This document shows, one piece after another, positions 8,491 through 46,167 of a stretch of DNA of 64,000 nucleotides. Location: positions 1,889 through 65,888 of the forward strand of contig CAZXKN010000116.1 of assembly GCA_964641815.1 (NCBI GenBank), read 5' to 3'. Each line of letters begins with the position of its first letter. The first letter of the stretch is position 1. The notes beneath the pieces were generated by a model. That model made no database searches and had not been told where the DNA came from. It saw only the letters and a list, made by a program, of their open reading frames with translations. Position numbers and translations under genes: made by a program. Origin of the DNA: an uncultured Gemmatimonadaceae bacterium (GTDB taxonomy: Bacteria > Gemmatimonadota > Gemmatimonadetes > Gemmatimonadales > GWC2-71-9).

Positions 8491-8494
8491 ACCG

Positions 8495-9757: not shown

Positions 9758-11496
9758 CCGCTCGTGGCGCCGCCCTTGCCGCGGCGATCGGACGGCACGT
9801 AGCCGGGCCCGCGCAGGCCGCGACCCGGACGGGCAGCGGTGATCTCGCCGCGTCGCAGCACGATCTGGCCGTTGACCAGCACGTAGGTGATGCCGACGGA
9901 GGGCTGGTGTGGCTTCTCGAAGGTCGCGCGGTCGTTCACCGTCTCGGGATCGAACACCGTGATGTCGGCGGCCATCCCGGGCCGCAGCAGGCCGCGGTCA
10001 GCGAGGCCGACGCGCTGCGCGGCGAGGGACGTCATTTTGCGCACTGCGAACTCGAGCGGCATCAGATGTTGCTGGCGCACGTACAGTCCGAGGATGCGCG
10101 GGAACGTCCCGTACGCCCGCGGATGCGTGTAATCCTTGCCGAACGGTCCGTCGGGGGCGACGCCGGAGGCATCGCAGTCCACCGCCACCCACCACGTCTT
10201 CAGCGCCGCCTGCACATCGTCATCTCTCATCTCGAAGTAGATCGCGCCGGTGCGGGCGTGGTCGGCGAGCACGATGTCGAACAGCGTCTCAATGGGGTCC
10301 TTCTTGCGCTCGCGGGCGATGTCCCCGAGGTGACGTCCGTCGAGCGCGTGGAGCGAGTCCTGGAACACCCCGGCGATCATCACCCCATCAGCGCCGCCCG
10401 AATTGATGTAGGGGTTCTCGTCGCCGCCTCCGGTGAGCATCTCCTGGCGCAGCTTGACCCGGGTGGGCCGGTCGCGCAGCCGTGCGAGCAGTGAATCCGT
10501 CCCGCCGGCGTGGGCCCACTGCGGGATCGCCGCGTCGAGCGACGTGGCGGCGGCGATGTAGGGATACTGATCGGCGGTGATGTCGAGCCCCGCGGCCCGG
10601 GCGGAGTCGATGCGCTGAATCAGGTGCGGCATGCGGCCCCACTGCGGCGCGCCTGCGGCCTTGAAATGCCAGATCTCGGCGGGGATATCGGCGGCCTGGG
10701 CAATGCGGAACACTTCGTCGAGCGCCTCGTCTTCGTGTCCCGCTTCGTTGCGGATGTGGGAGGCGTAGATCCCGCCGTGACGGCGCGCCGCGCGCGCGAG
10801 CCCGATCAGCTCTTCGGTCGGTGCGTAGATCGCCGGGGCGTACAGCAGGGCCGTCGACACGCCGAGGGCGCCCTGTTCCATCATGGTGTCGACCAGCGCT
10901 TCCATGTGGGCCTGCTCGGGGCCGGTGGCCGGACGGTTGGCGAAGCCGATCACCGCCATCCGCACCTGCGTGGCGCCGACGAACGTCGCGATATTGATCG
11001 TGGATCCGGTGTGCTCGAGGTGGGCGAAGTAGCCGTCCAGATCGCGCCAGTCCTCGCTGAACTTGTACTTCTTCATCACCGCGGAATCGAGCGCGACCAG
11101 CCGGTCGGTGAGCGGCGCCACCGAGCCGCCTTCTCCCGTCACTTCGGTCGTGATCCCCTGCGTCACCTTCGAAAGCGCCCGATTGTCGATCAGGACGTTC
11201 GTCTCCGACTGCCCCAGCATGTCGACGAAGCCGGGTGCGACGACCAGCCCTTTCACGTCGAGCGTTTCCTTCGCCGTCCCGGTGAGGCGGCCGATCGCGG
11301 CGATGCGATCGCCGCGCACGCCGAGATCCCCGCGCCAGCGCGGATTGCCGCTGCCGTCGACGATCCAGCCGCCGCTGAGCAGCACGTCATACGTGGCGTT
11401 CGCCGGCGGCGGCGGCGCGGCGGTACTGGACGGCTTGGGGCGCTGGCACGCCGCGGCGGCGAGCAGCACGAGCCCCGCACAGGTCACTTTTTCCAT
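9754..11496 (-). CDS. N-acyl-D-amino-acid deacylase (D-aminoacylase)-like amidohydrolase, secreted/lipoprotein
   Basis: Trimmed from track ORF 9754..12561 to MEKVTCAGLVLLAAAACQ (lipoprotein-like signal). Family motifs: DGSGNPRWRGDLGVRGDRIAAIG, APGFVDMLGQSE, GITTEVTGEGGS, IYASHIRNE, IWHFKAAG. Confidence 0.8.
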   Translation of the reverse strand: MEKVTCAGLVLLAAAACQRPKPSSTAAPPPPANATYDVLLSGGWIVDGSGNPRWRGDLGVRGDRIAAIGRLTGTAKETLDVKGLVVAPGFVDMLGQSETNVLIDNRALSKVTQGITTEVTGEGGSVAPLTDRLVALDSAVMKKYKFSEDWRDLDGYFAHLEHTGSTINIATFVGATQVRMAVIGFANRPATGPEQAHMEALVDTMMEQGALGVSTALLYAPAIYAPTEELIGLARAARRHGGIYASHIRNEAGHEDEALDEVFRIAQAADIPAEIWHFKAAGAPQWGRMPHLIQRIDSARAAGLDITADQYPYIAAATSLDAAIPQWAHAGGTDSLLARLRDRPTRVKLRQEMLTGGGDENPYINSGGADGVMIAGVFQDSLHALDGRHLGDIARERKKDPIETLFDIVLADHARTGAIYFEMRDDDVQAALKTWWVAVDCDASGVAPDGPFGKDYTHPRAYGTFPRILGLYVRQQHLMPLEFAVRKMTSLAAQRVGLADRGLLRPGMAADITVFDPETVNDRATFEKPHQPSVGITYVLVNGQIVLRRGEITAARPGRGLRGPGYVPSDRRGKGGATSG

Positions 11497-18351: not shown

Positions 18352-20901
18352 ATGACCTCACCGACCCGCGAACGCATCCTGCCCCGGCTCATCGAAGACG
18401 AGCTGAAGGAATCGTTCCTCGACTATTCGATGAGCGTCATCGTGCAGCGCGCGCTGCCCGATGTGCGTGACGGCTTGAAGCCGGTGCACCGGCGCATCCT
18501 GTACGCGATGCACGAGCTGGGACTCCTCCCGGGGCGTCCCTTCAAGAAGAGCGCGACCGTCGTCGGCGACGTGCTCGGCAAGTACCACCCGCACGGCGAT
18601 ATCGCCGTCTACGACTCGCTGGTCCGCATGGTGCAGGACTTCTCGCTGCGCTATCCGCTGATCGACGGGCAGGGAAACTTCGGCTCGGTCGACGGCGATG
18701 CCGCAGCCGCCTACCGCTACACTGAAGCCCGGCTGACGCGCATCGCGATGACGATGCTCGAGGACATCGACAAGAACACCGTCGATTTCATCCCCAATTT
18801 CGACGAGCATCTGCAGGAGCCGACCGTTCTGCCGGCCCGCCTGCCGAATCTGCTGGTCAACGGATCGGCCGGGATCGCGGTCGGGATGGCGACCAACATT
18901 CCGCCCCACAACCTCGGTGAGACGGTCGCAGCGATCACCCACCTGGTCGATCATCCCACGGCGACCATCAAGGATCTGCGCAAGTTCATCAAGGGGCCGG
19001 ACTTCCCCACGGGCGCGATCATCTACGGCCGGGACGGGATCAAAGAATGCTACGAGAAGGGCCGCGGCCGTATCGTCATCCGGGCCCGGGCGACGATCGA
19101 GGAGAAGGAGTCGACGGGGAAGCAGCAGATCGTCGTCACCGAGTTCCCCTACCAGGTCTCCCCCGAACGGGTGATCGAGCAGATCCGCGACCTGGTGCTG
19201 GGCAAGAAGCTCGAGGGGATCAGCGACCTCCGCAATGAATCCGACAAGGACGGCATCCGCGTCCTGATCGAGCTGAAGCGCGACATCGTGCCGATGGTCG
19301 TGCTGAACCAGCTGTACCAGCGCACGCAGATGCAGGTGACGTTCGGAGCGATCATGCTGGCGCTGGTGGACGGCGTGCCGCGCGAGCTGAACCTGAAGGA
19401 GATCCTCGAGAACTTCATCGAGCATCGCCACACCGTCATCGTCCGCCGCACCGAATTCGAGCTGCAGCGCGCCCAGGATCGCGAGCACATCCTGGAAGGG
19501 TTGAAGATCGCTGTCGATCACATCGACGAAGTGGTCCGCATCATCCGCAAGGCCAAGGACGTCCCCGCTGCCGACGCGGCATTGCGCAAGCGCTTCAAGT
19601 TGTCCGAGCGGCAGTCCGCTGAAATCCTCAACATGCGCCTGGCGCGGCTCACGGCCCTCGAAATCACCAAGCTCGAAGACGAATTGAAGGAAGTCCGCAA
19701 GTTCATCAAGGAATGCAAGGAGATTCTCGCCTCCAAGCCGCGGCGCATGAAGATCCTGAAGGAAGAGCTGGCCGAGCTGGGGCACGGCTTCAGCGACGAG
19801 CGGCGCACCGAGATCGTGGCCGACCAGGGCGAGTTCTCGATCGAGGACCTGATCGCCGAAGAGGACATGGTGATCACGGTGTCCCACGGCGGCTACATCA
19901 AGCGTCTCCCCGTCACCTCCTACCGGCGGCAGCGGCGCGGCGGCCGGGGCGTCACCGCCGCCCACGCGAAGGAAGACGACTGGCTCGAGCACCTGTTCAT
20001 CGCCTCGACCCACGACTACGTGATGTTCTTCACCCAGAACGGGCAGTGCTACTGGCTCAAGGTGCACGAGATCGCCCAGGCCGCGCGCGCCGCCCGGGGC
20101 AAGCCGGTGCTCAACTGCATCGCGATCAAGCCCGACGAGCGGGTCGCGGCGCTGGTGCCGGTGCGGGAGTTCTCCGAGGATCAGTTCCTGTTCTTCATCA
20201 CCCGTGAGGGGGTGGTGAAGAAGACGCGGCTCTCCGAGTTCGGCAATCCGCGCTCGGTGGGCATCCGGGCGATCAACATCGAGAAGGGCGATGAGCTGAT
20301 CGACGTGCAGGTGACCGATGGGAAGAACGACGTTGTGCTCGCCACCCGGCACGGGATGAGCATCCGCTTCCACGAGCAGGATGTGCGCGACATGGGACGG
20401 ACCGCCACCGGCGTCTGGGGCGTCGCGCTCGACAAGAGGGACAAGGTGATCGATCTCGTGATCATCCGGCGCGCGTCGACGCTGCTCGCCGTCACCGAGA
20501 AGGGGATGGGCAAGCGCTCGGAGCTCGACGAATACCGCGTGCAGCATCGCGGCGGCCGCGGCATCATCACGCTGAAGCGCAACGACAAAACCGGCGACGT
20601 GGTCGCCCTGAAGGAAGTGCTCCCCGACGACGAGTTGATGATGATCACCAAGAAGGGGATCGTGATCCGCGTCCCGGTCGAAGGCATCCGCATTACGGGC
20701 CGCAACACCCAGGGCGTGAAGGTCATGAACCTCACCCCCGGCGATCTCGTGGTCGATGTGGCGCGTATCGTCAAGGAAGAGGATGGCGAGGGGGACGACG
20801 ACGAGGAGTCCCCGACCCCAAAAGCCGCCCCGCAAGGTCCCCCGAAAGCTCCGCCGCCGAAGGCCGGGCCGTCCAAGGGCAAAGGCAAGAAAAGGAAATG
20901 A
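18352..20901 (+). CDS. gyrA: DNA gyrase subunit A
   Basis: 849 aa with [26 protein letters not shown], the active-site [12 protein letters not shown]-terminal beta-pinwheel repeats and an acidic-then-basic tail. Confidence 0.97.
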
Positions 20902-25511: not shown

Positions 25512-27129
25512 AGGCCTGTCAGTCCTTGTTGCGGTTTGCAGTCTCGTCACGCCATCCGCGGGGCAATCCCCGCGAGTTCAATCCTACGGCTTCTCCCTGT
25601 CATTGCCGGACAACGACGACTCCATATTGCGCGTGACCGCGTGGATCAACTTCGAACCGGGATCGTTCCAGCAAGGGGATACGGCCAAACTCAATCTCGT
25701 TGGTCTGACCGTGGACCGCGTTTTCGAGAGGGGATTGAACGGGTGGGAGCTGGGAAGCCGGATCGAGTTTGGTTATGACGGGAGCCTCCTTCGGGTCCGG
25801 TTACCCGATCCGGCGCGAGCGCGCGGCATCGTTGTCGAGTATCACGGCACCCCACGAGATGGACTCATCATCGGCCGCGACCTGCGGGGAAGGCGCGTCG
25901 TATTTGGGGACAACTGGCCCGAGCGAGCAAGGTTCTGGATTCCTACGGTCGATCATCCAAGTGACAAGGGACAAGTAGCCTTTTCAATCGGCGTTCCAGT
26001 TGGGTCGGGATTACGCGTCGTGGCGAACGGACGGTGGGTCGCCGGGAGCCTGAACGAAACCGACCATGGCCGCCAAGTGGTCACTACCTGGCAAGAAGAC
26101 TCGCCAATTCCCACCTACACCATGGTGCTGGGCGCCGCACATTTCGCCGTCTCCAATCATCGTCCAATTGTTCACGGCCGCGACACGATCCCCATCACCG
26201 TCTGGGCCTACCCCGAGGACTCTGCGTTCGCCGACTCGGGTCCGTTCCGCCGCGTCACGGAGATCGTCGAGACGATGGAGCGGCTCGTCGGCCCGTTTCC
26301 CTACGAGAAGCTGGCGCACGTCGAGTCGTCGACCCGCTACGGCGGCATGGAGAACTCGACGGCGATTTTCTACGCCGAGAAACCGTACGTCGAGCGCACG
26401 ATGCGCGAGGGCGTGGTGCGCCACGAGACGTCGCACCAGTGGTTCGGAGACGCCGTGACCGAGCGCGACTGGGCGCACCTGTGGCTGTCGGAGGGGTTCG
26501 CCAGCTACTTCGACCTCGTGATCGGCGCCGCGCTCGACGGCGATTCGGTGCTCACGGCTGGCCTGACGCGCGATGCCCGCGCCTACTTCGCGTCCAAGGT
26601 GGTCGATCGGCCGCTCGTCGACACCGCCGAACACGATCCGAACAATCTCCTCAACGAAAACAGCTACCAGAAGGGCGCGTGGGTGCTGCATATGTTGCGG
26701 GAGTCGGTCGGCGACTCGGCGTTCTTTCGCGGGATCCGCGAGTACTACCGGGTGTACCGTGACTCGACCGCCCGCTCGAGCGATTTTCAGCGTGTGATGG
26801 AAGGCGCCGCCGGCCGCAGTCTCGACGAGTTTTTTCGGCAATGGCTCTGGCAACCCGGATATCCGCGCCTCGATGTCCGCTGGCGCTTCGAGGCGGCCGA
26901 CCACCGCGTCCGGTTGGAGATCACGCAGTCGCAGCCCGAGGCGTGGGGCATATTTCGTATTCCCGGGCTCGAGGTCGAAGCGGTATCGGCGGCGGGAGTG
27001 GCGACGCGGCGCGTCTATGCGCTCGACGACCGCACGACCATCGCCTACCTCGAGCTCGCTGCTGCGCCGAGCGTGATTCACGTCGATCCCGATCATCGGC
27101 TGCTCGTGCAGACTACCGTGACGCCTTAG
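25501..27129 (+). CDS. M1-family zinc aminopeptidase (aminopeptidase N-like), secreted
   Basis: 542 aa with a signal peptide, exopeptidase motif GGMENS, and zinc site HETSHQWFGD...WLSEGFASY (HExxH-x18-E). Confidence 0.85.
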   Translation: MGGRGLSVLVAVCSLVTPSAGQSPRVQSYGFSLSLPDNDDSILRVTAWINFEPGSFQQGDTAKLNLVGLTVDRVFERGLNGWELGSRIEFGYDGSLLRVRLPDPARARGIVVEYHGTPRDGLIIGRDLRGRRVVFGDNWPERARFWIPTVDHPSDKGQVAFSIGVPVGSGLRVVANGRWVAGSLNETDHGRQVVTTWQEDSPIPTYTMVLGAAHFAVSNHRPIVHGRDTIPITVWAYPEDSAFADSGPFRRVTEIVETMERLVGPFPYEKLAHVESSTRYGGMENSTAIFYAEKPYVERTMREGVVRHETSHQWFGDAVTERDWAHLWLSEGFASYFDLVIGAALDGDSVLTAGLTRDARAYFASKVVDRPLVDTAEHDPNNLLNENSYQKGAWVLHMLRESVGDSAFFRGIREYYRVYRDSTARSSDFQRVMEGAAGRSLDEFFRQWLWQPGYPRLDVRWRFEAADHRVRLEITQSQPEAWGIFRIPGLEVEAVSAAGVATRRVYALDDRTTIAYLELAAAPSVIHVDPDHRLLVQTTVTP

Positions 27130-27138
27130 GAGGCCACA

Positions 27139-28266
27139 ATGCGAGAACGACTTGGGTACGCAGCGCTCTTGGTGATCGCCTGCAGCGGCGGTAAGTCGGC
27201 CGCCAGCCAGGAGCCGCCTGCCGGGATGGTGCCGCAACAAATCGCCGGGCACACGTTGTTTCTGCGCACCGGATTCAAGATCAACGTCTTCGCGGACCTC
27301 GGTGGGGTGCGCAACCTGGTGCTGGGACCTGGGGGCGCGGTCTACGCGGCGTTGCAGGGTCCCGGCCGAGTGGTCCGGCTCGCCCACGCCTCGGGAGACA
27401 GCACGGCCGGCGCCACCGAGGACGTCGCCACCGGGCTGAACGGTCCATTCGGGATCGCCTTCCGTGGCGACACGATGTACGTCGGCGAGCAGACTCGCGT
27501 GACGCGATTTGCTCCCGGGAGCACCGCCGGTCAGGCGATCGTTTCCGGGCTGCCCTCGGGCGGCCACAGCACCCGGACGGTCGTGTTCGGTCCGGACGGC
27601 CTGATGTACGTCGCGGTCGGATCTTCGTGCAACATTTGCGACGAGTCCGACCCGCGCCGCGCGGCGGTCACCCGTTTCAACCCAGACGGGTCGGGGGAGC
27701 ACCGCTTCGCGACAGGACTGCGCAACTCGGTGGGACTCGCCTTCAACCCGTCGACCAGTGAGCTGTGGGCGACGAACAACGACCGCGACAACATCGGCGG
27801 CTCGAATACCGCGATGACGGACGACCTGCCCCCCGAGCATCTCAACATCCTCAAGGACGGCAAGTTCTACGGCTGGCCGAAGTGCTATCTGCCAGGCAAG
27901 CCGAACCCTGAATACGCGAGCGCCGACTGCTCCACGGTCGAGCCTCCCGCGATCACCTTCCAGGCGCACTCGGCCCCGCTCGGCATCACGTTCTATACCG
28001 GTTCGGCGTTCCCCGGCTACAAGGGTGATGCGTTCCTCACGTATCACGGCTCGTGGAACCGCAGGGTCCCCACCGGCGCGAAGGTCGTGCACGTGAAGGT
28101 GGAGAGTGGCAAGCCGGTCTCGATCGAAGACTTCGTCACCGGCTGGCAGCTGCCCGACGGCTCGCGCTGGGGCCGTCCCGTAGCGGTGCTCGCGCTGCCC
28201 GATGGGTCGCTCCTGATTTCGGATGATCAGGGCGGGAAGATCTGGCGGGTGACGTATGGGAAGTAA
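27139..28266 (+). CDS. PQQ-dependent sugar (glucose/sorbosone) dehydrogenase-family beta-propeller
   Basis: 375 aa with a lipoprotein-like N-terminus (LLVIACSGG). Contains HSTRTVVFGPDGLMYVAVGSSCN and the DDLPPEHLN... pattern typical of soluble aldose/sorbosone dehydrogenases. Confidence 0.8.
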   Translation: MRERLGYAALLVIACSGGKSAASQEPPAGMVPQQIAGHTLFLRTGFKINVFADLGGVRNLVLGPGGAVYAALQGPGRVVRLAHASGDSTAGATEDVATGLNGPFGIAFRGDTMYVGEQTRVTRFAPGSTAGQAIVSGLPSGGHSTRTVVFGPDGLMYVAVGSSCNICDESDPRRAAVTRFNPDGSGEHRFATGLRNSVGLAFNPSTSELWATNNDRDNIGGSNTAMTDDLPPEHLNILKDGKFYGWPKCYLPGKPNPEYASADCSTVEPPAITFQAHSAPLGITFYTGSAFPGYKGDAFLTYHGSWNRRVPTGAKVVHVKVESGKPVSIEDFVTGWQLPDGSRWGRPVAVLALPDGSLLISDDQGGKIWRVTYGK

Positions 28267-28395
28267 GGGCGGACGAGGGCGGACGAAGGCGGGAGAGGTC
28301 TACGTCGTGATGGGGATGGGAATCGCTCTGGTCGGGGCTACGTGGGGGTTTTCCCTCTACCGCCCTCTACCGACTTCGTCCGCCTTCTCCCGCCC
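28267..28395 (+). repeat. unit-built hairpin H3 (decamer GGGCGGACGA arms) enclosing the start of the next gene
   Basis: 28267-28299 pairs with 28363-28395 (33 positions, 5 mismatches, 1 G-U). The left arm starts 1 nt after the upstream TAA. GGGAGAGG (28291-28298) lies in the left arm. GTG 28307, ATG 28310 and ATG 28316 lie in the 63-nt loop. Confidence 0.8.
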
Positions 28396-29074
28396 GGACA
28401 TCCACTCGGAGTACGTCAAGTATCTCTCGGGTAAGGACACCCTTACCGCCTATCTGGCCTATCCCGAGCGGCGCGATCCGGCCCCGGCGGTGATCGTGAT
28501 TCACGACATCTACGGCATGGGCGACCGGCTGCGGCCGGCGGTCGAGCTCCTGGCGCAGCGGGGATTCGTGGCGATCGGGCCGGACCTCCTGTCGCGTGCG
28601 GGCGGCACGCCGGCCACGTCCGACTCCGCACGACGGCTGATCTCGGGTCTCGATCCCGACGCCGTCACGCGCGATCTCGATGCGACCTACGCCTATCTCC
28701 GGACGATCAAGGCGGTGCGGGGCGATCACATCGGGGTCATCGGGTTCTGCTGGGGCGGGAGCCAGAGCTTCCGGTACGCCACGAACAATCCGAATCTCAA
28801 GGCGTTCGTCGTCTGCTACGGCTCGGCGCCCGATACTATGGCGCTGGCGCGGATCAAGACAAAGGGACTCGGTGTGTACGCGGAGAACGACGCGCGCATC
28901 GGCGCCGGGCTGCCGGGCCTGGACACGGCGGTCAAACGCCTGCGGCTCGACTACCAGTACCGCGTGTACCCGGGCGTCGGCCACGCTTTCCTCCAGACGC
29001 GTGAAAAGCCCGATGTGGCGGACACGGCGTGGGCCGCGATCGAGGGGTTTTTCCGATCCCAGCTCGGCCGCTGA
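28310..29074 (+). CDS. dienelactone hydrolase family protein
   Basis: AYLAYPERRDPAPAVIVIHDIYGMGD, nucleophile-elbow context IGVIGFCWGG, C-terminal YPGVGHAF. The start is uncertain (GTG 28307, ATG 28310 or ATG 28316). The track start at 28256 overlaps the upstream gene and the hairpin arm. Confidence 0.8.
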   Translation: MGMGIALVGATWGFSLYRPLPTSSAFSRPDIHSEYVKYLSGKDTLTAYLAYPERRDPAPAVIVIHDIYGMGDRLRPAVELLAQRGFVAIGPDLLSRAGGTPATSDSARRLISGLDPDAVTRDLDATYAYLRTIKAVRGDHIGVIGFCWGGSQSFRYATNNPNLKAFVVCYGSAPDTMALARIKTKGLGVYAENDARIGAGLPGLDTAVKRLRLDYQYRVYPGVGHAFLQTREKPDVADTAWAAIEGFFRSQLGR

Positions 29075-29526
29075 CGGTCGGGGCGGCACTCGCCGCCGCC
29101 CTGCTGGGCTGCTCCGACTCCGCGCCGTTCCGGCCTCCCGGCGCGTCGCTCGTTGTGACGGTGCAGGCGTATCACTGCTCGGGCGGCTGTGGGTCGCCGA
29201 GTGGCCCGGTCGATACGGTGCAACGAGGCGATACCGCTCTCGTGCGACTCGCGGTCGCGGACACGTCAGGGAGCAGCACGATCGCGCTCCTCCGTCCTGA
29301 CTGCGCCGTCAACGTCACGATCCTCGGCGGGACGACGCAGCACACGCTGCCCGCTGCCGCAACCTGTCCTGATTCCGGAATCTCGGTCGACATGGGTTCG
29401 GTTCCCTATCTGCGGGACATCGAGTGGATCGTGGATGGGTCGTTCGCGGCGGGGGACTACACGCTGCGCGGCGATATCGTCGTCGACCCTCCCGTGACGG
29501 GCCGGCGGCCGGTGCACGTCCGCTAG
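29029..29526 (+). CDS. hypothetical lipoprotein
   Basis: 165 aa with lipobox AALLGCS. Four further Cys residues. No recognised domain. The start is uncertain because ATG 29029 overlaps the previous gene by 46 nt. Confidence 0.5.
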   Translation: MGRDRGVFPIPARPLTVGAALAAALLGCSDSAPFRPPGASLVVTVQAYHCSGGCGSPSGPVDTVQRGDTALVRLAVADTSGSSTIALLRPDCAVNVTILGGTTQHTLPAAATCPDSGISVDMGSVPYLRDIEWIVDGSFAAGDYTLRGDIVVDPPVTGRRPVHVR

Positions 29527-29539
29527 ACGGTCGCGCGCG

Positions 29540-30850
29540 TCAGGGGGCGTGGCTCGAGCGGTTGAGGATGTACTCGCGCGCGCGGTCGAGCGGCGCGTCC
29601 TTCCCGGCGAGGAATTCCGACACACTCACATCGACCGGCAGCTCGGGTGCGATGCCGATGCCCTGAATCTCCGTGCCGTCGGGAAAAGCGTCACGCGTGA
29701 CGGTGAGCCGCAAGCGCCAGTCTCGGTGCAGGCGCAGCTCGCTGACCTGTCCCGCGCTGCCCGCCGACGGCTCGCCGATGATCGGGCCCCGCCCCGCGTT
29801 GCGATAGGCGATGAGCATGTCCTCGGCGCTCCCCCCCGTGCGGGAGGACGACAACATGGCCACCGGTCCCGGGAAGACGGGAAGGTCGGAGCGGGCAGCG
29901 ATCGTGTCGGGGGGCGCCGCAAACCACGCCCCGGCCGAGTCGGGCATGTCCTGGCCGCGGTAGGCGGGACGGTACTGCGGGGTGCGCCAGCGCGAGGTGA
30001 GGAGCGGCCCGCGGACCAGGCGGCCGAGGATCCGGTACCCCGTTTCCCGGCCGCCGCCCACGCCGTCGTGCTCGCGGAGATCGAGGATCATGCCGCGCAC
30101 CGCGGCGAAGTCGGGGAACGCGCGATCGAACGCGCGCGCCACGCCGGGGTCGGCGAACGAGGACAGGCGCACCCAGACGATGGAATCGGCGAGGGTATCA
30201 ACCTGAAGCGGGACGGGAGCGAGCGGCCAGCGATCGAGCAGCGACACGCTGCGCGTCACGCTGGCGCCCCGCTCCTCGCCGCCGGGGAGCCGGAGCAGCA
30301 GGTGCAGGGCAGTACCTTTCTCTCCGTCGAGCATGCGCGCGACGGCGAGGTCCCACCGGGCCGCGTCGGTGGAGGCGGCGATCTGGGGCAGCACCGAATC
30401 GCGGATCCAGCGCTCCGCCGGGATGCCCTGCACTGCGAGGATCTCGGTGTTGCGCTGTGGATGCGCCACGCGCAGCTCGTCGTTGTCGGCGAAGTCGACG
30501 AGGAACGGGCGCCGTTCGACGCTCCGCAACACGACGGGAGGACGCCCCCAGCGCCCCGCGATCGCCGCTGGCGGCACGATCATCGCCTGGCCGTCGTCGA
30601 GCAGGGCGACCAGGCGTTGCAGGCGACGGAAGTAGGCGAGCGGCGGCTCGCGCCCGTTGGCGGCACCCAGGACGTCGGCGAAACCGGAGTCCCAGTCCGC
30701 GTGGATCCGGTCCCAGGCGGGATCGTTGTATCGCGCCTCCGCCCAGACGGCGGCGGCGATGCGGGCGCGCTCCACCGGCGCGATCTGCTGCGCCAGGAGC
30801 GGCACACTCCAGGCGACACTCAGAAGCGAGAGGCGCAACGGTGACGGCAT
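29540..30850 (-). CDS. S41-family (tail-specific/C-terminal processing-like) serine peptidase, secreted
   Basis: 436 aa with signal peptide MPSPLRLSLLSVAWSVPLLAQQ. S41-like core: GMILDLREHDGVGGG, AMLSSSRTGGSAEDML, GEPSAG. Confidence 0.65.
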   Translation of the reverse strand: MPSPLRLSLLSVAWSVPLLAQQIAPVERARIAAAVWAEARYNDPAWDRIHADWDSGFADVLGAANGREPPLAYFRRLQRLVALLDDGQAMIVPPAAIAGRWGRPPVVLRSVERRPFLVDFADNDELRVAHPQRNTEILAVQGIPAERWIRDSVLPQIAASTDAARWDLAVARMLDGEKGTALHLLLRLPGGEERGASVTRSVSLLDRWPLAPVPLQVDTLADSIVWVRLSSFADPGVARAFDRAFPDFAAVRGMILDLREHDGVGGGRETGYRILGRLVRGPLLTSRWRTPQYRPAYRGQDMPDSAGAWFAAPPDTIAARSDLPVFPGPVAMLSSSRTGGSAEDMLIAYRNAGRGPIIGEPSAGSAGQVSELRLHRDWRLRLTVTRDAFPDGTEIQGIGIAPELPVDVSVSEFLAGKDAPLDRAREYILNRSSHAP

Positions 30851-32042
30851 GGCCGTAATCTATTTGGTCTTCCTCATCTCGCCCCAGGTGCTGCTGTACC
30901 GCTACCTGTGGGTGCGGCTGCCTGATCCCACGTCTGCGACGCAGACGCGGCTCGTGCGGCTGGGACTGTCGCTCGTGTTCGCGGCGTTCGACTTCCCCTG
31001 GGTCTTCGTCGCGCGTCGCGTCCTGTTCGGCAGCGTGTGGGCGGGCGGCGGCGTGCCGATGCTGGCGCCCTGGCTCGCGTGGCAGCTGCTCGGCTGGATG
31101 TTCGGCGCCGCGGTGAGTGTGTACATCGGCGTCAAGGCGGTGGTGTGGACGGTGCGCAAACTGCGCGGGACCGCGGTTCCCACCACTCCGGGGCCACGCC
31201 TCTCACGGCGCCGCTTCCTGGCTCGTGCCACCTACGCGTATGCTGCCACCGGTCTCACCCTGACCGGGTACGGAGTCGCGAGCGCCCGGCGCGTCCCCGG
31301 CGTCACGCGGCGCGTGCTGACGTTCCCCGACCTGCCGCCGGCGTTTGACGGGCTCACGATCCTGCACGTCTCAGATGTCCACGCCGGCCAGTTCATGGAG
31401 CGCGACCAGATGCAGGAGGTGGTGGCGCGCGCCAACGCGCAGCGCGCCGATCTCATCCTGCAGACCGGCGACATGATCGACTACTCGCCGAGCTACATCC
31501 CGGCATACGTGCGCGCCTTCCGCGACCTCCAGGCTCCGCTCGGCGTCGTCACCTGCCTCGGGAATCACGACCTCTATACCGGGGCGAAGAAGGTGATCCA
31601 GGGCGTGCGCGACGCGGGCCAGATCGTGGTGCGTGGCGGGACGCACCTCATCGAGCGCAACGGGTCGACGCTCGTGATCGCCGGGATCGACGATCCCGAC
31701 AACTGGCTGTTCGACGATCCGCAGACGCTCGCCGTCGATCGTGTGCTGCGCGTCGCTCCCGCGGGGGCGTTCACCATTCTGCTGGCGCATCGCCCGGGCG
31801 CGTTCGATACGGCGCGGCAGCGCGGTGTCCCGCTCACGCTGTCGGGGCACATCCACGGCGGGCAGATCGCCATTCCGTTGTTGGGGTGGTCGGCCGGGCA
31901 GCTGATTACCAAATACGTCGCGGGGCACTTCGTGTCGGGCGCGAGCCAGTTGTACGTCAGCCGCGGCATCGGCGTGGTGGGGGTACCGATCCGCGTATTC
32001 GTGCCGCCGGAGCTTGCGCTGCTCGAGCTGCGCCGGGGCTAG
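30849..32042 (+). CDS. membrane-anchored metallophosphoesterase (calcineurin-like)
   Basis: Trimmed from 30657 to MAVIYLVFLISPQVLLYRY (3-4 N-terminal TM helices). Phosphoesterase motifs: ILHVSDVHAG, QTGDMID, LGNHD, GHIHGG. An alternative GTG start lies at 30887. Confidence 0.8.
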   Translation: MAVIYLVFLISPQVLLYRYLWVRLPDPTSATQTRLVRLGLSLVFAAFDFPWVFVARRVLFGSVWAGGGVPMLAPWLAWQLLGWMFGAAVSVYIGVKAVVWTVRKLRGTAVPTTPGPRLSRRRFLARATYAYAATGLTLTGYGVASARRVPGVTRRVLTFPDLPPAFDGLTILHVSDVHAGQFMERDQMQEVVARANAQRADLILQTGDMIDYSPSYIPAYVRAFRDLQAPLGVVTCLGNHDLYTGAKKVIQGVRDAGQIVVRGGTHLIERNGSTLVIAGIDDPDNWLFDDPQTLAVDRVLRVAPAGAFTILLAHRPGAFDTARQRGVPLTLSGHIHGGQIAIPLLGWSAGQLITKYVAGHFVSGASQLYVSRGIGVVGVPIRVFVPPELALLELRRG

Positions 32043-33904: not shown

Positions 33905-34477
33905 ATGGCGCTCGACTTCCGCAGGCTCTGGCAGCAGGCGACACCCTACCACGAATTCGTCCGGGATGCGGCCGCAAACCGTGAGCTGTGGGCCTCGATG
34001 GAGCGGATCGCGCAGATTCCCGAGTGGGCGATCGCGGCGGTCCGGACCTCGGGAGAGAAGTTCAACTTCCTGGTGATCGCCGAAGACTGGTGCGGGGATG
34101 GGACGAGCACGATCCCCTATCTTGCCAAGCTCGCGACGATCACCCGCTGTATCGAAGTCCGGGTGCTGCGACGCGATGAGCACCCGGAAGCGATGGATCG
34201 CTATCTCACCGACGGGGCGCGCGCAATTCCGATCGTGATCGTCTTGAACCGGCATCTCGAGGAGCTGGGCCATTGGGGTCCACGCCCCGCAGACCTGCAG
34301 GAGTGGGTGCGCAGCGAGCGAGCGAAAACCGGAGTGAAGCCGCCCTACCCGCAGATCCGGCGCTGGTATGCGCGGGACAAGGGGATCGCGACGCTGCGGG
34401 AGGTGTTGGAGCTGTTCGCGAAGAAGCCGTCAGCTGTCAGCCCTCAGCCGTTAGCTGTTTCGGCAATGACTGGCTGA
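33905..34477 (+). CDS. thioredoxin-fold family protein (single-Cys WCGD motif)
   Basis: Trimmed to MALDFRRLWQQATPYHEF. Contains FLVIAEDWCGDGTSTIPYL and AIPIVIVL. The last ~16 codons (KKPSAVSPQPLAVSAMTG) are encoded by hairpin H4. Confidence 0.7.
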   Translation: MALDFRRLWQQATPYHEFVRDAAANRELWASMERIAQIPEWAIAAVRTSGEKFNFLVIAEDWCGDGTSTIPYLAKLATITRCIEVRVLRRDEHPEAMDRYLTDGARAIPIVIVLNRHLEELGHWGPRPADLQEWVRSERAKTGVKPPYPQIRRWYARDKGIATLREVLELFAKKPSAVSPQPLAVSAMTG

Positions 34478-34492
34478 TAGCTGACAGCTGAC
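34429..34492. repeat. unit-built hairpin H4 (heptamer GTCAGCT / AGCTGAC arms) between convergent genes
   Basis: 34429-34449 pairs with 34472-34492 (21 bp, 2 mismatches) with a 22-nt loop. The plus-strand stop (34475-34477) lies inside the right arm. The minus-strand stop (34498) is 6 nt beyond. Confidence 0.8.
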
Positions 34493-41042: not shown

Positions 41043-42631
41043 CGCTGCGCGTGGTGGTGGCGGACCGCCTCGCGGCGGGCGGGCTGGACTTGCTGGCGCA
41101 GACGCCCGGGATCGAAGTGGTGAATTGCGCTGGCAAGCCGGCCGAGGAGCTGCAGCGGGCGCTGGAGCAGGCGCAGGCGCTGATCGTGCGCAGCGAAACC
41201 AAGGTCACGGTCGATGTCATGAACCGCGCCCCCGAGCTGCGCGTGATCGCGCGCGCCGGCATCGGCGTGGATACGATCGACGTGACCGCGGCGACCCGGC
41301 GCGGCATCGCCGTGATGAACGCCCCCGGGGCGAACACCGTCAGCGCCGCCGAGCATGCGCTCGGCCTGCTGCTCTCGCTGGTGCGCCACATTCCCGAAGC
41401 CGCCGAGTCGATGCGGCGCGGCGAATGGGATCGCAAGAAGTACGAAGGCACCGAGCTGCGTGGCAAGATTCTCGGCGTCGTCGGCCTGGGCCGGATCGGG
41501 GGCCACGTCTCGCAGATCGCGCGCGCGTTCGGCATGACGGTCGTGGCCCACGATCCGTTCCTGCCGCCGCATCGGGCTGCCGAAATGCAGGTCAAGATCC
41601 TCCCGCTCGAGCAGCTGCTCGCCGCCGCGGACGTCGTCACCCTGCACGTCGCCTTGAGCGACCAGACGCGTCACCTGATCAATGCCGACCGGCTGGCGCT
41701 CATGAAGAAGACCGCGGTGCTGATCAACACCGCGCGCGGCGAGCTGGTGGACGAGGCGGCGCTGGCGGCGGCAGTCAAGGCCAAACAGATCGCGGGGGCG
41801 GCGGTGGACGTCTTCTCTGAGGAGCCGCTCCCCAAGGACTCCCCGCTGCGGGGCATCGACCGACTGATCCTCACTCCCCACCTGGCCGCCTCGACCGCGG
41901 AGGCACAAGACCGGGTGTCGCACGAGATCGCCACGGCGGTGCGGGACGCGCTCCTCCAGGGCGATCTCTCGACGGCCGTGAACGTCCCGGGAATCGGCGG
42001 CGACGTGCTGCGCCGCACTGCCCCGCTGCTCGCGTTGGCGCGCCGGCTCGGCCGGCTCGCCGGCGGACTCAGCGGCGCGGAGGTGACCGCCCTGGAAGTC
42101 GCCTATGGTGGCAGAGACGAGGAGGCCACGCGCCCCGTGCTCATCGCCGCCCTGGAGGGACTGCTCTCCGCCATCGGCGCGGGACCGGTGAGTCTCGTGA
42201 ACGCCACCGTTGTGGCCGAAGAGCGCGGCATCCGGCTCACGCGCCGCTCCGGCGCGGCCGAGCCGGGATTCGAAACGTCGCTCGGCGTGTCGGTGGATGC
42301 GGCGGGGAAGCGGGTGCGGGTCGCGGGAGCGCTCGTGGGATCGAACCAGGGCCGCGTGGTCCGGATCGACGACTATCACGTCGACGTCGTCCCCGAGGGC
42401 TGGCTGCTCGTCGTGAAGAACCGCGACGTGCCGGGCGTGATCGGTCGCGTCGGGACCCTGCTCGGCGAGTCGGGAATCAACATCGGCAGCTGGCACCAGG
42501 CGCGGGACGCCGGCCCGGGTCAGGCGCTGGCCGCAATCACCGTCGATCAGCCACCTGTAGACGGCGTGCGACACCGTATCGAGCAGCTTCCTGATGTCCT
42601 CGAAGTGAGACTCGCGCATTTCGGTGACTGA
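41039..42631 (+). CDS. serA: D-3-phosphoglycerate dehydrogenase with C-terminal ACT domain
   Basis: Trimmed from 40499 to GTG 41039 (VTLRVVVADRL). Contains GIGVDTIDV, GVVGLGRIGG, NTARGELVD, LTPHLAAST, and a C-terminal ACT-like segment LLVVKNRDVPGVIGRVGTLLGESGINI. Confidence 0.9.
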   Translation: MTLRVVVADRLAAGGLDLLAQTPGIEVVNCAGKPAEELQRALEQAQALIVRSETKVTVDVMNRAPELRVIARAGIGVDTIDVTAATRRGIAVMNAPGANTVSAAEHALGLLLSLVRHIPEAAESMRRGEWDRKKYEGTELRGKILGVVGLGRIGGHVSQIARAFGMTVVAHDPFLPPHRAAEMQVKILPLEQLLAAADVVTLHVALSDQTRHLINADRLALMKKTAVLINTARGELVDEAALAAAVKAKQIAGAAVDVFSEEPLPKDSPLRGIDRLILTPHLAASTAEAQDRVSHEIATAVRDALLQGDLSTAVNVPGIGGDVLRRTAPLLALARRLGRLAGGLSGAEVTALEVAYGGRDEEATRPVLIAALEGLLSAIGAGPVSLVNATVVAEERGIRLTRRSGAAEPGFETSLGVSVDAAGKRVRVAGALVGSNQGRVVRIDDYHVDVVPEGWLLVVKNRDVPGVIGRVGTLLGESGINIGSWHQARDAGPGQALAAITVDQPPVDGVRHRIEQLPDVLEVRLAHFGD

Positions 42632-43193: not shown

Positions 43194-43214
43194 GCGAAAG
43201 ATTGTGAAAGTGGC

Positions 43215-43287
43215 GGAGGTTGGTGGAAGATGGTGGAGGCAACATCGAGCTACGTCCACCATCCTTCACCATCCTCCGCCAACCTCC
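43215..43287. repeat. unit-built hairpin H5 (decamer GGTGGARGWT arms) between convergent genes
   Basis: 43215-43239 pairs with 43263-43287 (25 positions: 1 mismatch, 2 G-U) with a 23-nt loop. It fills the gap between stops at 43193 (+) and 43299 (-). Confidence 0.8.
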
Positions 43288-43298: not shown

Positions 43299-44666
43299 CT
43301 AGTTCGTCTTATGCAGCTCCACCCGCCGATTCCGCGAGCGGCCTACCGCTGTCGCGTTGGTATCGATGGGATCGTCCGCGCCGTAGCCGCGCGACGTGAT
43401 CTGCTCCGGTGACACCCCCCGCTCGATGAGGTAGCTGCGCACCGCGTCCGCCCGGGCTTTCGAGAGGCGGAGATTGGCGGCGAGGCCGCCGCGGCTGTCG
43501 GTGTACCCGGCCACTTCCACGCGCGTCCCGGCGTGCGCCACCAGCGAGATCGCCACACGGTCGAGCGCGCCCCGCGCCCCGGCAGTGAGCGCCGTGCTGT
43601 TGAGCTCGAACGTCACATCCTCGAGGACCAGCGTGCGCGCGACTCCGGTAAAGAGCGGCGGGCACCCGATCGAATCGACCTTCTCCCCGACGGGCGTGCT
43701 GGGGCACTTGTCCATCGTGTCGACCACCCCGTCGCCATCGGAGTCCTTCGGCAGCGGGCAGCCGGTGGCGTCGATCTTCTCGCCGGCCGGCGTGTTGGGG
43801 CACTTGTCGGCGGAGTCGGGGACTCCGTCCTTGTCGCTGTCGAGCTCGCACCCCGTCGCGTCCACCTTCATTCCGGGCGGCGTGTTGGGGCACTTGTCGA
43901 GCGCATCAACCACGCCGTCCCCGTCCGCGTCCTTGGGGAGCGAGCACCCGCGCGCATCCACCTTGTCGCCCGCGGGGGTGTTGGGGCAACGGTCCAGGTT
44001 GTCGACCACCCCGTCCCCGTCTGCATCCTTGGGCAGCGAACAGCCGTGCGCATCGACCGATTCCCCGGGCGGCGTGTTGGGACAGTTGTCGAACTTGTCA
44101 CCCACACCGTCGTGATCGGAGTCCTTGGGGTGACTGCTGCCGATCAGGGCGGAGAGCCCGGCCTGCAGTGAAAAATTCCAGTTGTTCGGGACCGCGACGC
44201 TCTGGTTTTGCGGCGAGGGAATGAAATCCTCGACCGCCTCGACCCGCATCGCCCAGGCGCTGCCCAGGCCGAGGCGTAAGCCGAACAGTCCGCTCACGCC
44301 GTCGTCGGAGTAGTTGGCGGTCTTGCCATAGACGTTGTGGACGTACCCCGCCCCCATCATGATGCCGAGACTCCCGACGACCGGACGCCCGTACACCAGC
44401 TGGGCGCGCAACGGAATCAGCGTGCCATCGGGGATGAACGGACCAGTGGTCGGCAGATAGCCGCCCGTGCCCTCGACGGCGAGCCCGGGGGCGAGAAAGA
44501 CACCGAGGTACCCGCCGCCTCCGAAGGCGTTGTCGAGTGCCAGGGATTTATCGAACCGCGTGTAGCGTCCGAATCCACCGAACTCGATCGTCCCGGCGTC
44601 TTGTGCCGGGAGAGCGGCGGCGAATCCGGTGAGCAAGGCGACAACCGCCACGGTGCGAACGTGCAT
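43299..44666 (-). CDS. OmpA-family outer membrane protein with thrombospondin type-3 calcium-binding repeats
   Basis: Trimmed to MHVRTVAVVALLTGFAAALPAQ; a strong SD GGAAAGGAGG lies upstream. It has an N-terminal beta-barrel-like region and 5 repeats of D.D.DGV.D..D.CPNTP.G..VD..GC. The C-terminal OmpA domain carries GYTDSRG...NLRLSKARA. Confidence 0.85.
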   Translation of the reverse strand: MHVRTVAVVALLTGFAAALPAQDAGTIEFGGFGRYTRFDKSLALDNAFGGGGYLGVFLAPGLAVEGTGGYLPTTGPFIPDGTLIPLRAQLVYGRPVVGSLGIMMGAGYVHNVYGKTANYSDDGVSGLFGLRLGLGSAWAMRVEAVEDFIPSPQNQSVAVPNNWNFSLQAGLSALIGSSHPKDSDHDGVGDKFDNCPNTPPGESVDAHGCSLPKDADGDGVVDNLDRCPNTPAGDKVDARGCSLPKDADGDGVVDALDKCPNTPPGMKVDATGCELDSDKDGVPDSADKCPNTPAGEKIDATGCPLPKDSDGDGVVDTMDKCPSTPVGEKVDSIGCPPLFTGVARTLVLEDVTFELNSTALTAGARGALDRVAISLVAHAGTRVEVAGYTDSRGGLAANLRLSKARADAVRSYLIERGVSPEQITSRGYGADDPIDTNATAVGRSRNRRVELHKTN

Positions 44667-44766
44667 GGCGGCCTCCTTTCCGAGGTCGAATGATTTCCTT
44701 GCTCGGTACCCCGGAGTGCGACAGACGTATCGCGGCAGCAACAACTTCGACACCACACCCGCAGCT

Positions 44767-44802: not shown

Positions 44803-46167
44803 TCAGCCGATGCGGTGCAGCTCCACTCGACGATTGCGGGCGCGGCCGGCCGGGGTGAGGTTCGAATCGCGAGGATTGGCTGACCCGAACCCGCGCGCAG
44901 TCAGCCGGGCGGGCGTGACGCCCTGGCGGATCAAGTACGCGCGTACTGCGTCGGCGCGGGCTTGCGACAACCGCCGATTGGCTTCCGGGGCCCCCTGGTC
45001 GTCGGTGTAGCCCGCGACTTCGACCCGGATCTCCGGGTATGCCCGAAGACTCGCGGCCACCTGATCGAGCGTTCCGAACGAGGCCGCCGCCAGCACCGCG
45101 CTTCCCGTCTGGAAGGTGAGGCCTTGCAGGATCAGCGTGCGCGATCCGCTGGTGAAGAGCAGGGGACACCCCAGTGCATCGACGCCCGCGCCGGCCGGCG
45201 TCCGCGGGCAGCGATCGCTCGCATCGGGGACCCCGTCGCCGTCGGCGTCCTTGGCGATCGCGCAGCCGCTGGCGTCCACCGTGTCGCCTGCCGGAGTGTT
45301 GGGGCACTTGTCCGCGGCATCGGCGACGCCGTCCCCGTCGGAGTCGATGGGACAACCGTTCGCATCGACCTTGACTCCGGCGCGGGTGCCGGGGCACTGG
45401 TCGTTGGCGTCGATCACACCGTCGCCGTCGGAATCCTTCGGCAGGGAGCAGCCGTTCGCGTCCACCAGGTCGCCGAGCGGGGTGCCGAGGCACTTGTCGA
45501 GCGAATCAGGAACGCCGTCGGAATCCGAGTCCCGGGCAGGAGCCGCGGGTGGCGCGACGCGCACGCCGGTCGGCGGCGGCTGCGTGGGAGCGGGGACGGC
45601 CGTCGGGAAGCGCGGCAGCGAGCCCGATCCGCGCCTGCCGATCAGTACGTCGAAGCCCGCCTGCAGCGCGAAATTCCAGTTGTCTCCGACGCCGGGCCCT
45701 TCGTTCAGCGGCGAGGGGAAGTAGTCGCTCACCGCGGCGACGCGCACCGCCAGGTGCGGGGTGAGATCGAAGCGGGCGCCGAAGAGTCCGGTGATGCCGT
45801 CTTCCCACTGGCTCGTGCCGTCGCGCACGGCGTTGTGGACAAAGCCGGCGCCGAACAACACCGTCGTCGTCGGTGCGGCAGGGACGCCGTAGACGAGCCG
45901 GAGCCGCAGCGGGATTTCCTTGACGTTCCCCGCCGCTGACACACCCGGAGCGGAATAGGCCGCCGATCCCTCGACGGCGAAGCCGCGCGCGACCCACACC
46001 GCGAGCGTCCCGCCGACCCCGATTCCGTCATTGATGAGGAGCGACGGATCGTAGCGCGTGAACTGCCCCAGCCCGCCGAGCTCGATCGTGCCGGGACGCT
46101 GCGCGACGACGGGGACGGTCAGGAGCGCCGACAGCACGACCGCGCTCGCGGGGACGGCCACTCGCAT
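44803..46167 (-). CDS. OmpA-family outer membrane protein with thrombospondin type-3 repeats (paralogue)
   Basis: Trimmed from 46527 to MRVAVPASAVVLSALLTVPVVAQ. It has the same architecture as 43299..44666, with 4 TSP3-like repeats and the OmpA domain GYTDDQG...NRRLSQARA. Confidence 0.85.
   Translation of the reverse strand: MRVAVPASAVVLSALLTVPVVAQRPGTIELGGLGQFTRYDPSLLINDGIGVGGTLAVWVARGFAVEGSAAYSAPGVSAAGNVKEIPLRLRLVYGVPAAPTTTVLFGAGFVHNAVRDGTSQWEDGITGLFGARFDLTPHLAVRVAAVSDYFPSPLNEGPGVGDNWNFALQAGFDVLIGRRGSGSLPRFPTAVPAPTQPPPTGVRVAPPAAPARDSDSDGVPDSLDKCLGTPLGDLVDANGCSLPKDSDGDGVIDANDQCPGTRAGVKVDANGCPIDSDGDGVADAADKCPNTPAGDTVDASGCAIAKDADGDGVPDASDRCPRTPAGAGVDALGCPLLFTSGSRTLILQGLTFQTGSAVLAAASFGTLDQVAASLRAYPEIRVEVAGYTDDQGAPEANRRLSQARADAVRAYLIRQGVTPARLTARGFGSANPRDSNLTPAGRARNRRVELHRIG

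Follow-up and report, generated by a model that had tools for sequence, protein, structure and literature searches.

Introduction

Repetitive extragenic palindromes (REPs) form one conserved sequence family per genome, are mobilised by RAYT transposases and stabilise upstream mRNA segments, as in E. coli operons. Rickettsia palindromic elements (RPEs) are conserved mobile insertions that lie in frame in protein-coding genes, where they are translated as a tolerated segment. Template switching at quasi-palindromes, together with replication slippage, could generate tandem units on inverted arms and homogenise them. Where a REP lies within about 15 nt of a stop codon, it has an effect on how the preceding gene is translated (see also the REP overview PMC3733652). 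Heptamer arrays of cyanobacteria and Beggiatoaceae (short tandemly repeated repetitive sequences, STRR; TAACTGA) adjoin the starts or ends of genes, and post-transcriptional roles have been proposed for them (PMC4679880; bioRxiv 10.1101/2022.06.06.494920); only one inverted case was counted among 170 sets (PMC4679880). We have analyzed a stretch of 64,000 nucleotides from an uncultured Gemmatimonadaceae bacterium (assembly GCA_964641815.1, contig CAZXKN010000116.1), called here the window. At positions 28267-28395 it carries a long hairpin that begins directly after the stop codon of a glucose/sorbosone dehydrogenase gene and lies within the 5′ part of a dienelactone hydrolase gene (the hydrolase hairpin).

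Hairpins of this kind form a lineage-wide class in Gemmatimonadales. We call them periodic-arm hairpins because each arm is an array of tandem units of 7, 8 or 10 nt. The class is apparently previously undescribed: no description of hairpins with tandem-repeat arms was found in the literature, for Gemmatimonadota or elsewhere, in a coverage that is incomplete, so that this absence is not proof. The papers on the TAACTGA repeats, on the Nostoc heptamers and on inverted repeats in 118,019 genomes describe no such hairpins.

Results

Structure of the hydrolase hairpin

In an ungapped hairpin scan, the best pairing joins the 5′ arm at 28267-28298 (GGGCGGACGAGGGCGGACGAAGGCGGGAGAGG) to 28364-28395, over 32 nt with 84% complementarity and around a loop of 65 nt; a second register leaves a loop of 55 nt. 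An earlier note on this DNA, made from the sequence alone, had described the two pairing arms and placed the beginning of the 5′ arm at the nucleotide right after the TAA at 28264-28266. Sequence and starting point are as described there, and the loop of 63 nt has to give way to the two values above. The stem can be extended outward to 28259-28298 and 28364-28403, that is 40 nt at 80% (inverted repeat I1), the outer extension of the 5′ arm (28259-28266, plus strand) pairing with that of the 3′ arm (28396-28403, plus strand) in the minimum free energy (MFE) structures. Tandem Repeats Finder resolved both arms into arrays with a period of 10, of 2.7 copies at 28266-28292 and of 4.3 copies at 28353-28395, a feature that the earlier note does not mention. 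Since both arms are tandem repeats, several pairing registers (I1 to I4) are possible. The RNA fold of 28255-28410 reaches -81 kcal/mol, against -65 ± 3.9 kcal/mol in 200 dinucleotide shuffles (z = -4.08), none of which folded as well, and the same hairpin also dominates the fold of a 231-nt context. The structure is an imperfect hairpin of about 40 bp contained wholly within codons 2-49 of the hydrolase gene. We are highly confident of this anatomy and of the membership of the hairpin in the periodic-arm class.

All parts of the structure have a translation in the hydrolase frame (plus strand). The 5′ arm at 28267-28298 consists of three period-10 units, GGGCGGACGA, GGGCGGACGA and AGGCGGGAGA, followed by GG, and yields KGGRGRTKAGE, a basic tail ahead of a membrane helix. 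The loop of 65 nt (28299-28363) encodes the hydrophobic membrane-anchor segment VYVVMGMGIALVGATWGFSLY(R), and an equivalent hydrophobic segment is present in all homologs. The 3′ array at 28353-28395, of CCCTCTACCG-type units and paired at 28364-28395, encodes SLYRPLPTSSAFSRP, which forms a Pro/Ser linker; the C-rich 3′ arm within it is translated as (L)YRPLPTSSAFSRP. The right arm had already been recognised as coding, and it gives LYRPLPTSSAFSRP in the hydrolase frame.

GC-rich as the stem is, its loop of 55-65 nt departs from the short loop (3-8 nt) of canonical terminators. No U-tract is present 3′ of the stem, where the sequence is GGACATCCACTCGG, and a scan of 26500-30000 for canonical terminators returned nothing at the hairpin. 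These results agree with the earlier view that the structure is not a simple terminator. A permissive Rfam search of 27000-29500 returned only sub-threshold matches to models of long-hairpin microRNA precursors (34 bits against a cut-off of 96).

A class of periodic-arm hairpins in Gemmatimonadales

The hairpin scan of the 64-kb window found seven strong hairpins, six of them with periodic arms, whereas whole-window dinucleotide shuffles (n = 12) averaged 0.25 strong hairpins per 64 kb and contained no periodic one. Tandem Repeats Finder detected further pairs of short-period arrays with reverse-complementary units across the whole window. The six periodic hairpins are built from six unrelated units. 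Two of the sister hairpins sit between co-directional genes, 0-4 nt after the upstream stop. One of them (3278-3352, minus strand; period 7, CGATGAC/GTCATCG) begins 4 nt after the stop at 3357-59, and the last unit of its 3′ arm holds the ATG of a downstream IPMDH/ICDH-like gene. The other (8419-8496, minus strand; period 10, GACGGTAAGA type) comes directly after the TGA at 8497-99, the next gene starting at 8398. Three more, to which no strand is assigned, are found between convergent genes, at 34429-34492 (period 7, GCTGTCA), at 43211-43281 (period 10, GGTGGAAGAT; stops at 43193-95 and 43299-301) and at 50851-50927 (period 7, GAATGCA). The last one exactly fills the gap between the stops 50843-45 and 50931-33, and a stop codon forms part of its outermost unit. 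Five of the six periodic hairpins begin 0-17 nt after a stop codon, and a periodic hairpin occupies all three convergent gaps of the window that exceed 13 nt. None was found in divergent spacers, either in the window or in the related loci from metagenome-assembled genomes (MAGs).

Two other structures of the window were recorded beside these hairpins. Its only strong non-periodic hairpin, at 41492-41557, has arms of 16 nt that are 94% complementary and a loop of 34 nt. A heptamer array of GCGGATT type (5220-5250, minus-strand sense; about 4.4 copies) lies directly after the stop of the gene 5255-5770 (minus strand) and is followed by GGAGG and by the ATG 5192 (minus strand) of the next gene; it is without an inverted partner and may be a 'half' periodic-arm element or the precursor of one.

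In the related MAG loci (484 kb), 82 of 122 strong hairpins are periodic, with periods of 7, 8 or 10. They mostly adjoin stop codons or occupy coding linkers, these context tallies being approximate because the genes were called with a crude GC3-based caller. As controls, two stretches of equally GC-rich DNA, from a Deinococcus and a Variovorax plasmid (81 kb in total), yielded two strong hairpins, neither of them periodic. On a finished replicon of the cultured Gemmatirosa kalamazoonensis we counted 11 strong hairpins in 50 kb, whose arms have internal direct repeats; period-9 units occur in Gemmatirosa. An assembly artefact was ruled out, as the same structures occur in assemblies of several pipelines, whose diversity was judged by the naming styles of the contigs, and in the finished replicon of an isolate.

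The hairpins share a polarity. The G-rich arm is the 5′ arm in 81 of the 82 periodic hairpins of the related loci and in 10 of the 11 strong Gemmatirosa hairpins, and the hydrolase hairpin follows the same rule (GC skew of the left arm, +0.60). Because this G-first polarity is identical on both DNA strands, it is a property of the single-stranded hairpin itself.

Units are rarely shared between sites. In the MAG loci, the sharing of 7-mers is 0.047 between sites within a genome versus 0.023 between genomes, and only two related genomes have a unit common to two of their sites. In both of them (L041, 3014-3143 and 3864-3941; L055, 2978-3076 and 3757-3851) the unit GGCGGTA(A/G)G is shared by the hairpin at the hydrolase N-terminus and by a second one, some 700 nt away, that immediately follows the hydrolase stop; this suggests that neighbouring hairpins have been copied from, or converted by, one another. 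A genome-specific recognition motif or a mobile family was considered and rejected for the MAGs, where units at different sites are almost never alike, though dispersed families do exist in Gemmatirosa. On plasmid 1 of Gemmatirosa kalamazoonensis (L089; NZ_CP007129, 100001-150000), near-identical families were noted at 5733-5841, 11179-11271 and 19251-19333, and at 9514-9587 and 45334-45485 (GACAGGATGAACAGGACGGACAGGATG; CCGCAGAGGACGCAGAGGGCCGCAGAGG). One repeated-arm hairpin of this plasmid lies in a 5′ or divergent region. Such REP-like behaviour was not seen in the window.

Conservation of position and exchange of the repeat unit

The hydrolase site was compared in 80 orthologous loci from Gemmatimonadales/Gemmatimonadota genomes, with 59-95% protein identity. 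In 47 of them a strong hairpin brackets the membrane-helix codons at the N-terminus of the hydrolase. At least 11 different units occupy this site, differing by lineage, with a period of 10 in some lineages and of 8 in others. They include GGCGGACGA, GGCGGATG, GGCGGTCG, GGCGGTAAGA, GACGGTAAGA and GGCGGCAA, as well as GGCGGCGA, GGCGGTGGA, GGTGGAGGTT, GGAAGGTTGGA and GACGGCCA. At each hairpin, the two arms always share one unit. The RNAalifold consensus of 13 aligned period-10 loci comprises 28 pairs, 15 of which carry compensatory double changes, as compared with 7.7 ± 1.6 in shuffles (0/500 as high). The covariation score of 0.342 exceeded that of the shuffles (0.183; 0/500) and was 0.06-0.15 if the partners were slid by 1-3 columns. 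The comparison of these orthologs shows that, at an orthologous position which stays fixed across deep divergence, both arms change together in the sequence of the unit and even in its length.

The exchange of units is also visible in the protein. The N-terminal motifs GGKRRYxAV... and ...YRPLPPxTAxxRP are the three reading frames of the 10-nt unit across three successive copies. A cause at the protein level was rejected for these conserved motifs, which spell out the unit in its three frames and change as it changes. In orthologs that lack the hairpin the N-terminus is about as long (31-53 codons), which argues that the arms evolved in place and were not inserted.

Three further sites are conserved in the related loci, one after the hydrolase stop, one after the stop of a downstream metallophosphoesterase gene and one in the middle of that gene, and there too the position is kept while the units change. 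The mid-gene hairpin was observed in L016, L017, L020, L021, L036, L042 and about 20 more loci, at locus positions of about 5250-5600. It is translated in frame, has a period of 7 (GTGCGTG, GTCGTGC, GAGCAGG) or 8 (GGCGGTTG), and precedes a Tat-like SRRxFLARATYAY motif. The metallophosphoesterase ortholog of the window (30657-32042) has no strong hairpin at this site. Another hairpin, non-periodic and with a GGGGCCC-type core, recurs after the metallophosphoesterase gene at locus positions of about 6170-6510 (for example L021 6314-6384, L016 6310-6384 and L042 6361-6427). Its sequence is conserved between several loci; this hairpin could be a plain terminator or an element of some other kind.

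The start codon of the hydrolase gene lies upstream of the hairpin

The upstream gene (27139-28266, plus strand) belongs to the glucose/sorbosone dehydrogenase family, with a beta-propeller of the pyrroloquinoline quinone type (Pfam GSDH PF07995, E = 6e-17), and its stop codon is the TAA at 28264-28266. A gene of the same family is also found upstream in most of the 80 related loci. The hydrolase gene (28256-29074, plus strand) encodes a dienelactone hydrolase family protein of 272 aa with an N-terminal membrane anchor (Pfam DLH PF01738, E = 5e-38, residues 64-267); 36 homologs were aligned. A scan revealed no promoter-like or terminator-like site between the two genes.

According to the earlier note, the left arm contained the Shine-Dalgarno (SD) sequence of the hydrolase gene, GGGAGAGG at 28291-98, and its possible starts, GTG 28307, ATG 28310 and ATG 28316, were located in the loop. 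The comparison of orthologs contradicts both assignments. In about 70 of the 80 loci the junction is of the form ...atctGGAGGgtgaNNtATGgNNNNTAA/TAG (also given as ...atctGGAGGgtgaNNtATG), with a canonical SD, GGAGG, 7 nt before an ATG and the upstream stop beginning 8 nt after this ATG (GGAGG-N7-ATG-N5-stop). The equivalents in the window are GGCGG at 28244-48, ATG 28256 and TAA 28264-66. The SD at 28244-28249 (plus strand), GGCGGG here and GGAGGG in most orthologs, falls inside the upstream gene, 7 nt before the ATG at 28256-28258 (plus strand), which on comparative grounds is the true start and produces an overlap of 11 nt with the upstream gene (ATGGGAAGTAA).

The reading frame supports the same start. 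Upstream of the conserved DIHSEYVKY motif it is open back to an ATG in all 80 loci, whereas the other two frames between the ATG and residue D48 contain 89 and 86 stop codons (77 loci). Wherever TAN of the repeat motif CGGTAN is in frame, its last base is a pyrimidine, T or C (10 of 10 cases), whereas out of frame it is A or G in 36 of 49 cases. These counts indicate that the in-frame stops which the repeat unit would create are specifically edited out. The loop ATGs 28310 and 28316 are both CTG in the closest relative (L001). Furthermore, homologs called from the upstream start possess a basic segment before the membrane helix, which a start at 28310 would delete. In the public annotation the protein (P0001, 254 aa) begins at ATG 28310, 18 codons downstream of 28256, and many database homologs of the hydrolase look N-terminally truncated too. 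The conserved junction, the open and stop-edited frame and the lack of conservation of the loop ATGs together indicate that the hydrolase starts at ATG 28256, that SD and AUG are both located 5′ of the stem and that the whole hairpin is translated. The predicted mRNA stem (MFE) begins at 28259, 1 nt past the AUG, so that neither the SD nor the start codon would be base-paired.

The N-terminus of the dehydrogenase (27139-27210, MRERLGYAALLVIACSGG...) resembles a lipoprotein signal that includes the cysteine of a lipobox, so that the two proteins of the overlapping gene pair would both be associated with the envelope.

Divergence of the arms between and within species

Between related locus pairs, the arms of the hairpin are 90% identical and the loop 78%, while the catalytic domain is 91% identical at codon positions 1+2 and 64% at position 3. 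For the pair L026/L040, the arms reach 98% identity versus 55% at third positions. Because unbiased homogenisation among copies does not slow the divergence between species, this slow divergence is a sign that purifying selection acts on the arms as nucleotide sequence. In six environmental contigs from different samples, which match the window at 97.7-99.96% identity, the junction region of 221 nt is invariant, with no differences in copy number.

Other repeats in the window

A 96-nt tandem repeat (43658-44126; 4.9 copies, 69% matches) in the minus-strand gene 43299-44756 is presumably a protein repeat domain. AT-rich direct repeats at 57197-57245, either two copies of a 25-nt unit or 3.4 copies of the 12-nt ACATCTTACGTA, lie in the divergent spacer between the genes 54423-57098 (minus strand) and 57274-57810 (plus strand) and look like an operator or promoter region.

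Discussion

How the hairpin may work

The translational coupling that the earlier note proposed survives in a corrected form, which we infer from the overlap of 11 nt and from a stem that begins 1 nt after the AUG. The stop and start codons have the proximity expected of a coupling hairpin (ATG 28256 and TAA 28264-66; about 70 of 80 loci). For a free 30S subunit, the mRNA must be single-stranded to roughly +15 nt. Such a subunit would have to melt about 12-15 bp of the stem in order to seat on the start, and de novo initiation on the hydrolase AUG would be disfavoured. A ribosome terminating at 28264-66, in contrast, would have unwound the outer 5′ arm, and the AUG 8 nt upstream would lie within its footprint. 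Synthesis of the hydrolase would then depend mainly on termination-reinitiation and would stay in a fixed ratio to that of the dehydrogenase. After refolding, the hairpin could block 3′ exonucleases or RNA polymerase where the dehydrogenase cistron ends, as REPs do in E. coli operons. A role of this kind is a candidate because the sister hairpins adjoin stop codons and fill the usable convergent gaps.

We regard as the best explanation a periodic-arm hairpin that keeps its place while its unit is exchanged, is translated with the hydrolase, couples the two cistrons and protects the 3′ end of the first; taken as a whole, it has slightly less than even chances in our estimate. Its functional part, namely coupling and 3′-end protection, is put forward more tentatively. 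The basis of the class may be more general, residing at the DNA level or in a maintenance mechanism, since the mid-gene site fits neither role. It is conceivable, if somewhat doubtful, that a so far unrecognised kind of Gemmatimonadales element is kept at gene boundaries and linkers over very long times by a dedicated, sequence-independent mechanism and acts as general RNA or DNA punctuation. A structure-specific protein or a templated repair process would keep all units alike, with the G-rich arm first, and the new peptide segments in the termini of membrane proteins (GGKRRYxAV, YRPLPPxTA) would be a side effect.

Alternative explanations

The hairpins could instead be self-perpetuating by-products at the DNA level, with replication slippage making the units, intrastrand template switching (quasi-palindrome correction) or gene conversion between the inverted arms keeping these complementary, and no cellular role. 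The hydrolase hairpin would then persist where the constraint on the sequence is low, and any effect on hydrolase expression would be incidental. Such an origin would suit units that look seeded from the local boundary, with a stop or start codon in the outermost unit, arrays that fill the available space exactly, the copy in a mid-gene linker and the heptamer array 5220-5250, which follows a stop without an inverted partner. It would also suit the frequent losses, including a clean one-arm deletion, the lack of a G:U excess, and the lineage differences in period and copy number. A by-product is nevertheless not expected to have arms that diverge far more slowly than synonymous sites (90% vs 64%; 98% vs 55% for L026/L040), nor to be free of copy-number variation among six near-identical environmental contigs. 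Moreover, the hairpins are absent from the divergent, untranscribed spacers of the MAG set, and the G-first rule (81/82; Gemmatirosa, 10/11) points to a constraint on the single-stranded form. All told, we consider a pure by-product rather unlikely. Phase variation would switch the hydrolase frame on and off as 10-nt units, whose length is not a multiple of 3, are gained or lost. The arrays, however, do not differ among six independent environmental contigs of one species, every one of the 80 orthologs is in frame, arrays of the same kind are common in non-coding gaps, and period-9 units occur in Gemmatirosa. The MAG periods of 7, 8 and 10, never multiples of 3, and the copy numbers that differ between lineages are what such a switch would use; we give it almost no credence.

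The hairpin could also be a 3′-end element only, serving the dehydrogenase message as a terminator or attenuator that depends on a factor or needs no U-tract, as a site for RNase III or as a barrier to exonucleases. Coupling would then play no part, and the overlap with the hydrolase coding sequence would be merely tolerated. Stems of more than 20 bp are generic substrates of RNase III. The filling of all three usable convergent gaps, the five of six hairpins that begin 0-17 nt after a stop, and the conserved copies right after the hydrolase and metallophosphoesterase stops in related loci would follow as well. However, the missing U-tract, the 65-nt loop and the empty terminator scan speak against termination, and the hydrolase gene overlaps its neighbour and has no promoter of its own, so that efficient termination would silence a conserved gene; the mid-gene sister site, in addition, cannot be a 3′-end element. 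An exclusive 3′-end role is thus unlikely. The remaining model, in which the left arm hides GGGAGAGG at 28291-98 and the upstream ribosome exposes starts in the loop, draws on the spacing of 8-17 nt between this SD-like sequence and the loop start codons and on the public call P0001, which uses ATG 28310. It is very improbable in view of the conserved upstream ATG with its canonical SD in about 70 of 80 loci, of an N-terminal extension that is kept open and stop-edited while the loop ATGs are CTG in L001, and of the basic segment before the membrane helix that a start at 28310 would lose.

Several observations weigh against the explanation that we favour, that is a conserved hairpin with roles in coupling and in 3′-end protection. 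Both roles are read from geometry, and coupling gives no account of the sister hairpins in other contexts, where the downstream start may fall within the 3′ arm, 20 nt beyond the hairpin or ahead of it altogether. About a third of the orthologs have no hairpin at the hydrolase site and an unchanged junction, and in L076 the 5′ repeats are kept while the 3′ arm is deleted; the hydrolase hairpin is therefore dispensable. The mid-gene site, in a linker of the membrane metallophosphoesterase before the SRRxFL motif, is far from any stop or start codon, and for this reason the class as a whole cannot be explained by one boundary function. A direct reading of the window copy shows that variant units are not mirrored between its arms. 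Finally, G:U pairs are not in excess of A:C pairs on the sense strand (23 vs 27 at the hydrolase site, 6 vs 17 at the mid-gene site), so that these counts do not establish selection at the RNA level. An alignment-based count leans the other way (G:U about 25 vs A:C 14), and the wobble comparison is confounded by Lys/Arg versus Pro coding and by bidirectional transcription.

Significance

If the class is real and functional, it would represent a new form of gene punctuation, in a major soil phylum on which little experimental work exists. The hairpins would then provide a clean natural example of concerted evolution, both from one arm to the other and from repeat to repeat inside an arm, and one of nucleic-acid structure shaping protein sequence, in the N-terminal motifs of the hydrolase family. 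They would also exemplify a systematic mis-annotation of start codons, the public hydrolase call being 18 codons short. They would offer a test case for how GC-rich bacteria without U-tract terminators end or stabilise their transcripts, and another for whether a strong structure just past the AUG enforces translational coupling. Experiments are feasible because a cultured relative, Gemmatirosa kalamazoonensis KBS708, carries similar hairpins.

Comparison with known systems

Coupling hairpins, such as that of the MS2 coat and replicase genes or those of overlapping bacterial cistrons, resemble the hydrolase locus in the 11-nt overlap of stop and start (ATGnnnnnTAA) and in the structure at the downstream start. 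In the classical cases the SD or the AUG is base-paired, whereas here both are outside the stem and the structure is wholly downstream of the AUG; the sister hairpins, moreover, have other geometries. Intrinsic and bidirectional terminators share with the present class the GC-rich hairpins just past stop codons and, for the sister copies, the position between convergent genes. They differ from hairpins with no U-tract, loops of 9-65 nt, arms of 20-40 nt and the G-rich arm first, and also from the hydrolase and metallophosphoesterase copies, which are inside coding sequence; at the hydrolase hairpin the terminator scan was empty.

The REP, BIME and REPIN elements of Enterobacteria and Pseudomonas are likewise imperfect GC-rich palindromes found after stops, between convergent or co-directional genes and in operons, and some Gemmatirosa hairpins approach them as dispersed multi-copy families. 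In contrast to REPs, the six copies of the window have six unrelated units, and units are rarely shared within a genome. The window arms are tandem direct repeats, which REP arms are not, and the hairpins are orthologous by position and evolve in place. The hydrolase and metallophosphoesterase copies are also inside translated open reading frames, while other copies are extragenic. RPEs are closer in this last respect, the hydrolase hairpin being in frame and translated within its host reading frame. Unlike RPEs, it has no conserved element sequence, and the N-termini of its hairpin-free orthologs differ little in length.

The heptamer arrays of cyanobacteria and Beggiatoaceae are comparable as 7-nt tandem arrays beside gene starts and ends. 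They consist of one direct heptamer used genome-wide, whereas the units described here are locus-specific and are accompanied by an inverted partner array. Template switching and slippage are mechanisms and not elements, and they do not predict arms that diverge slowly relative to synonymous sites. The periodic-arm hairpins of Gemmatimonadales bring together arms made of tandem repeats, units particular to each locus, positional orthology with concerted turnover of the unit, and an element through which translation proceeds. Each of the relatives considered above has one or two of these properties, and none has the combination.

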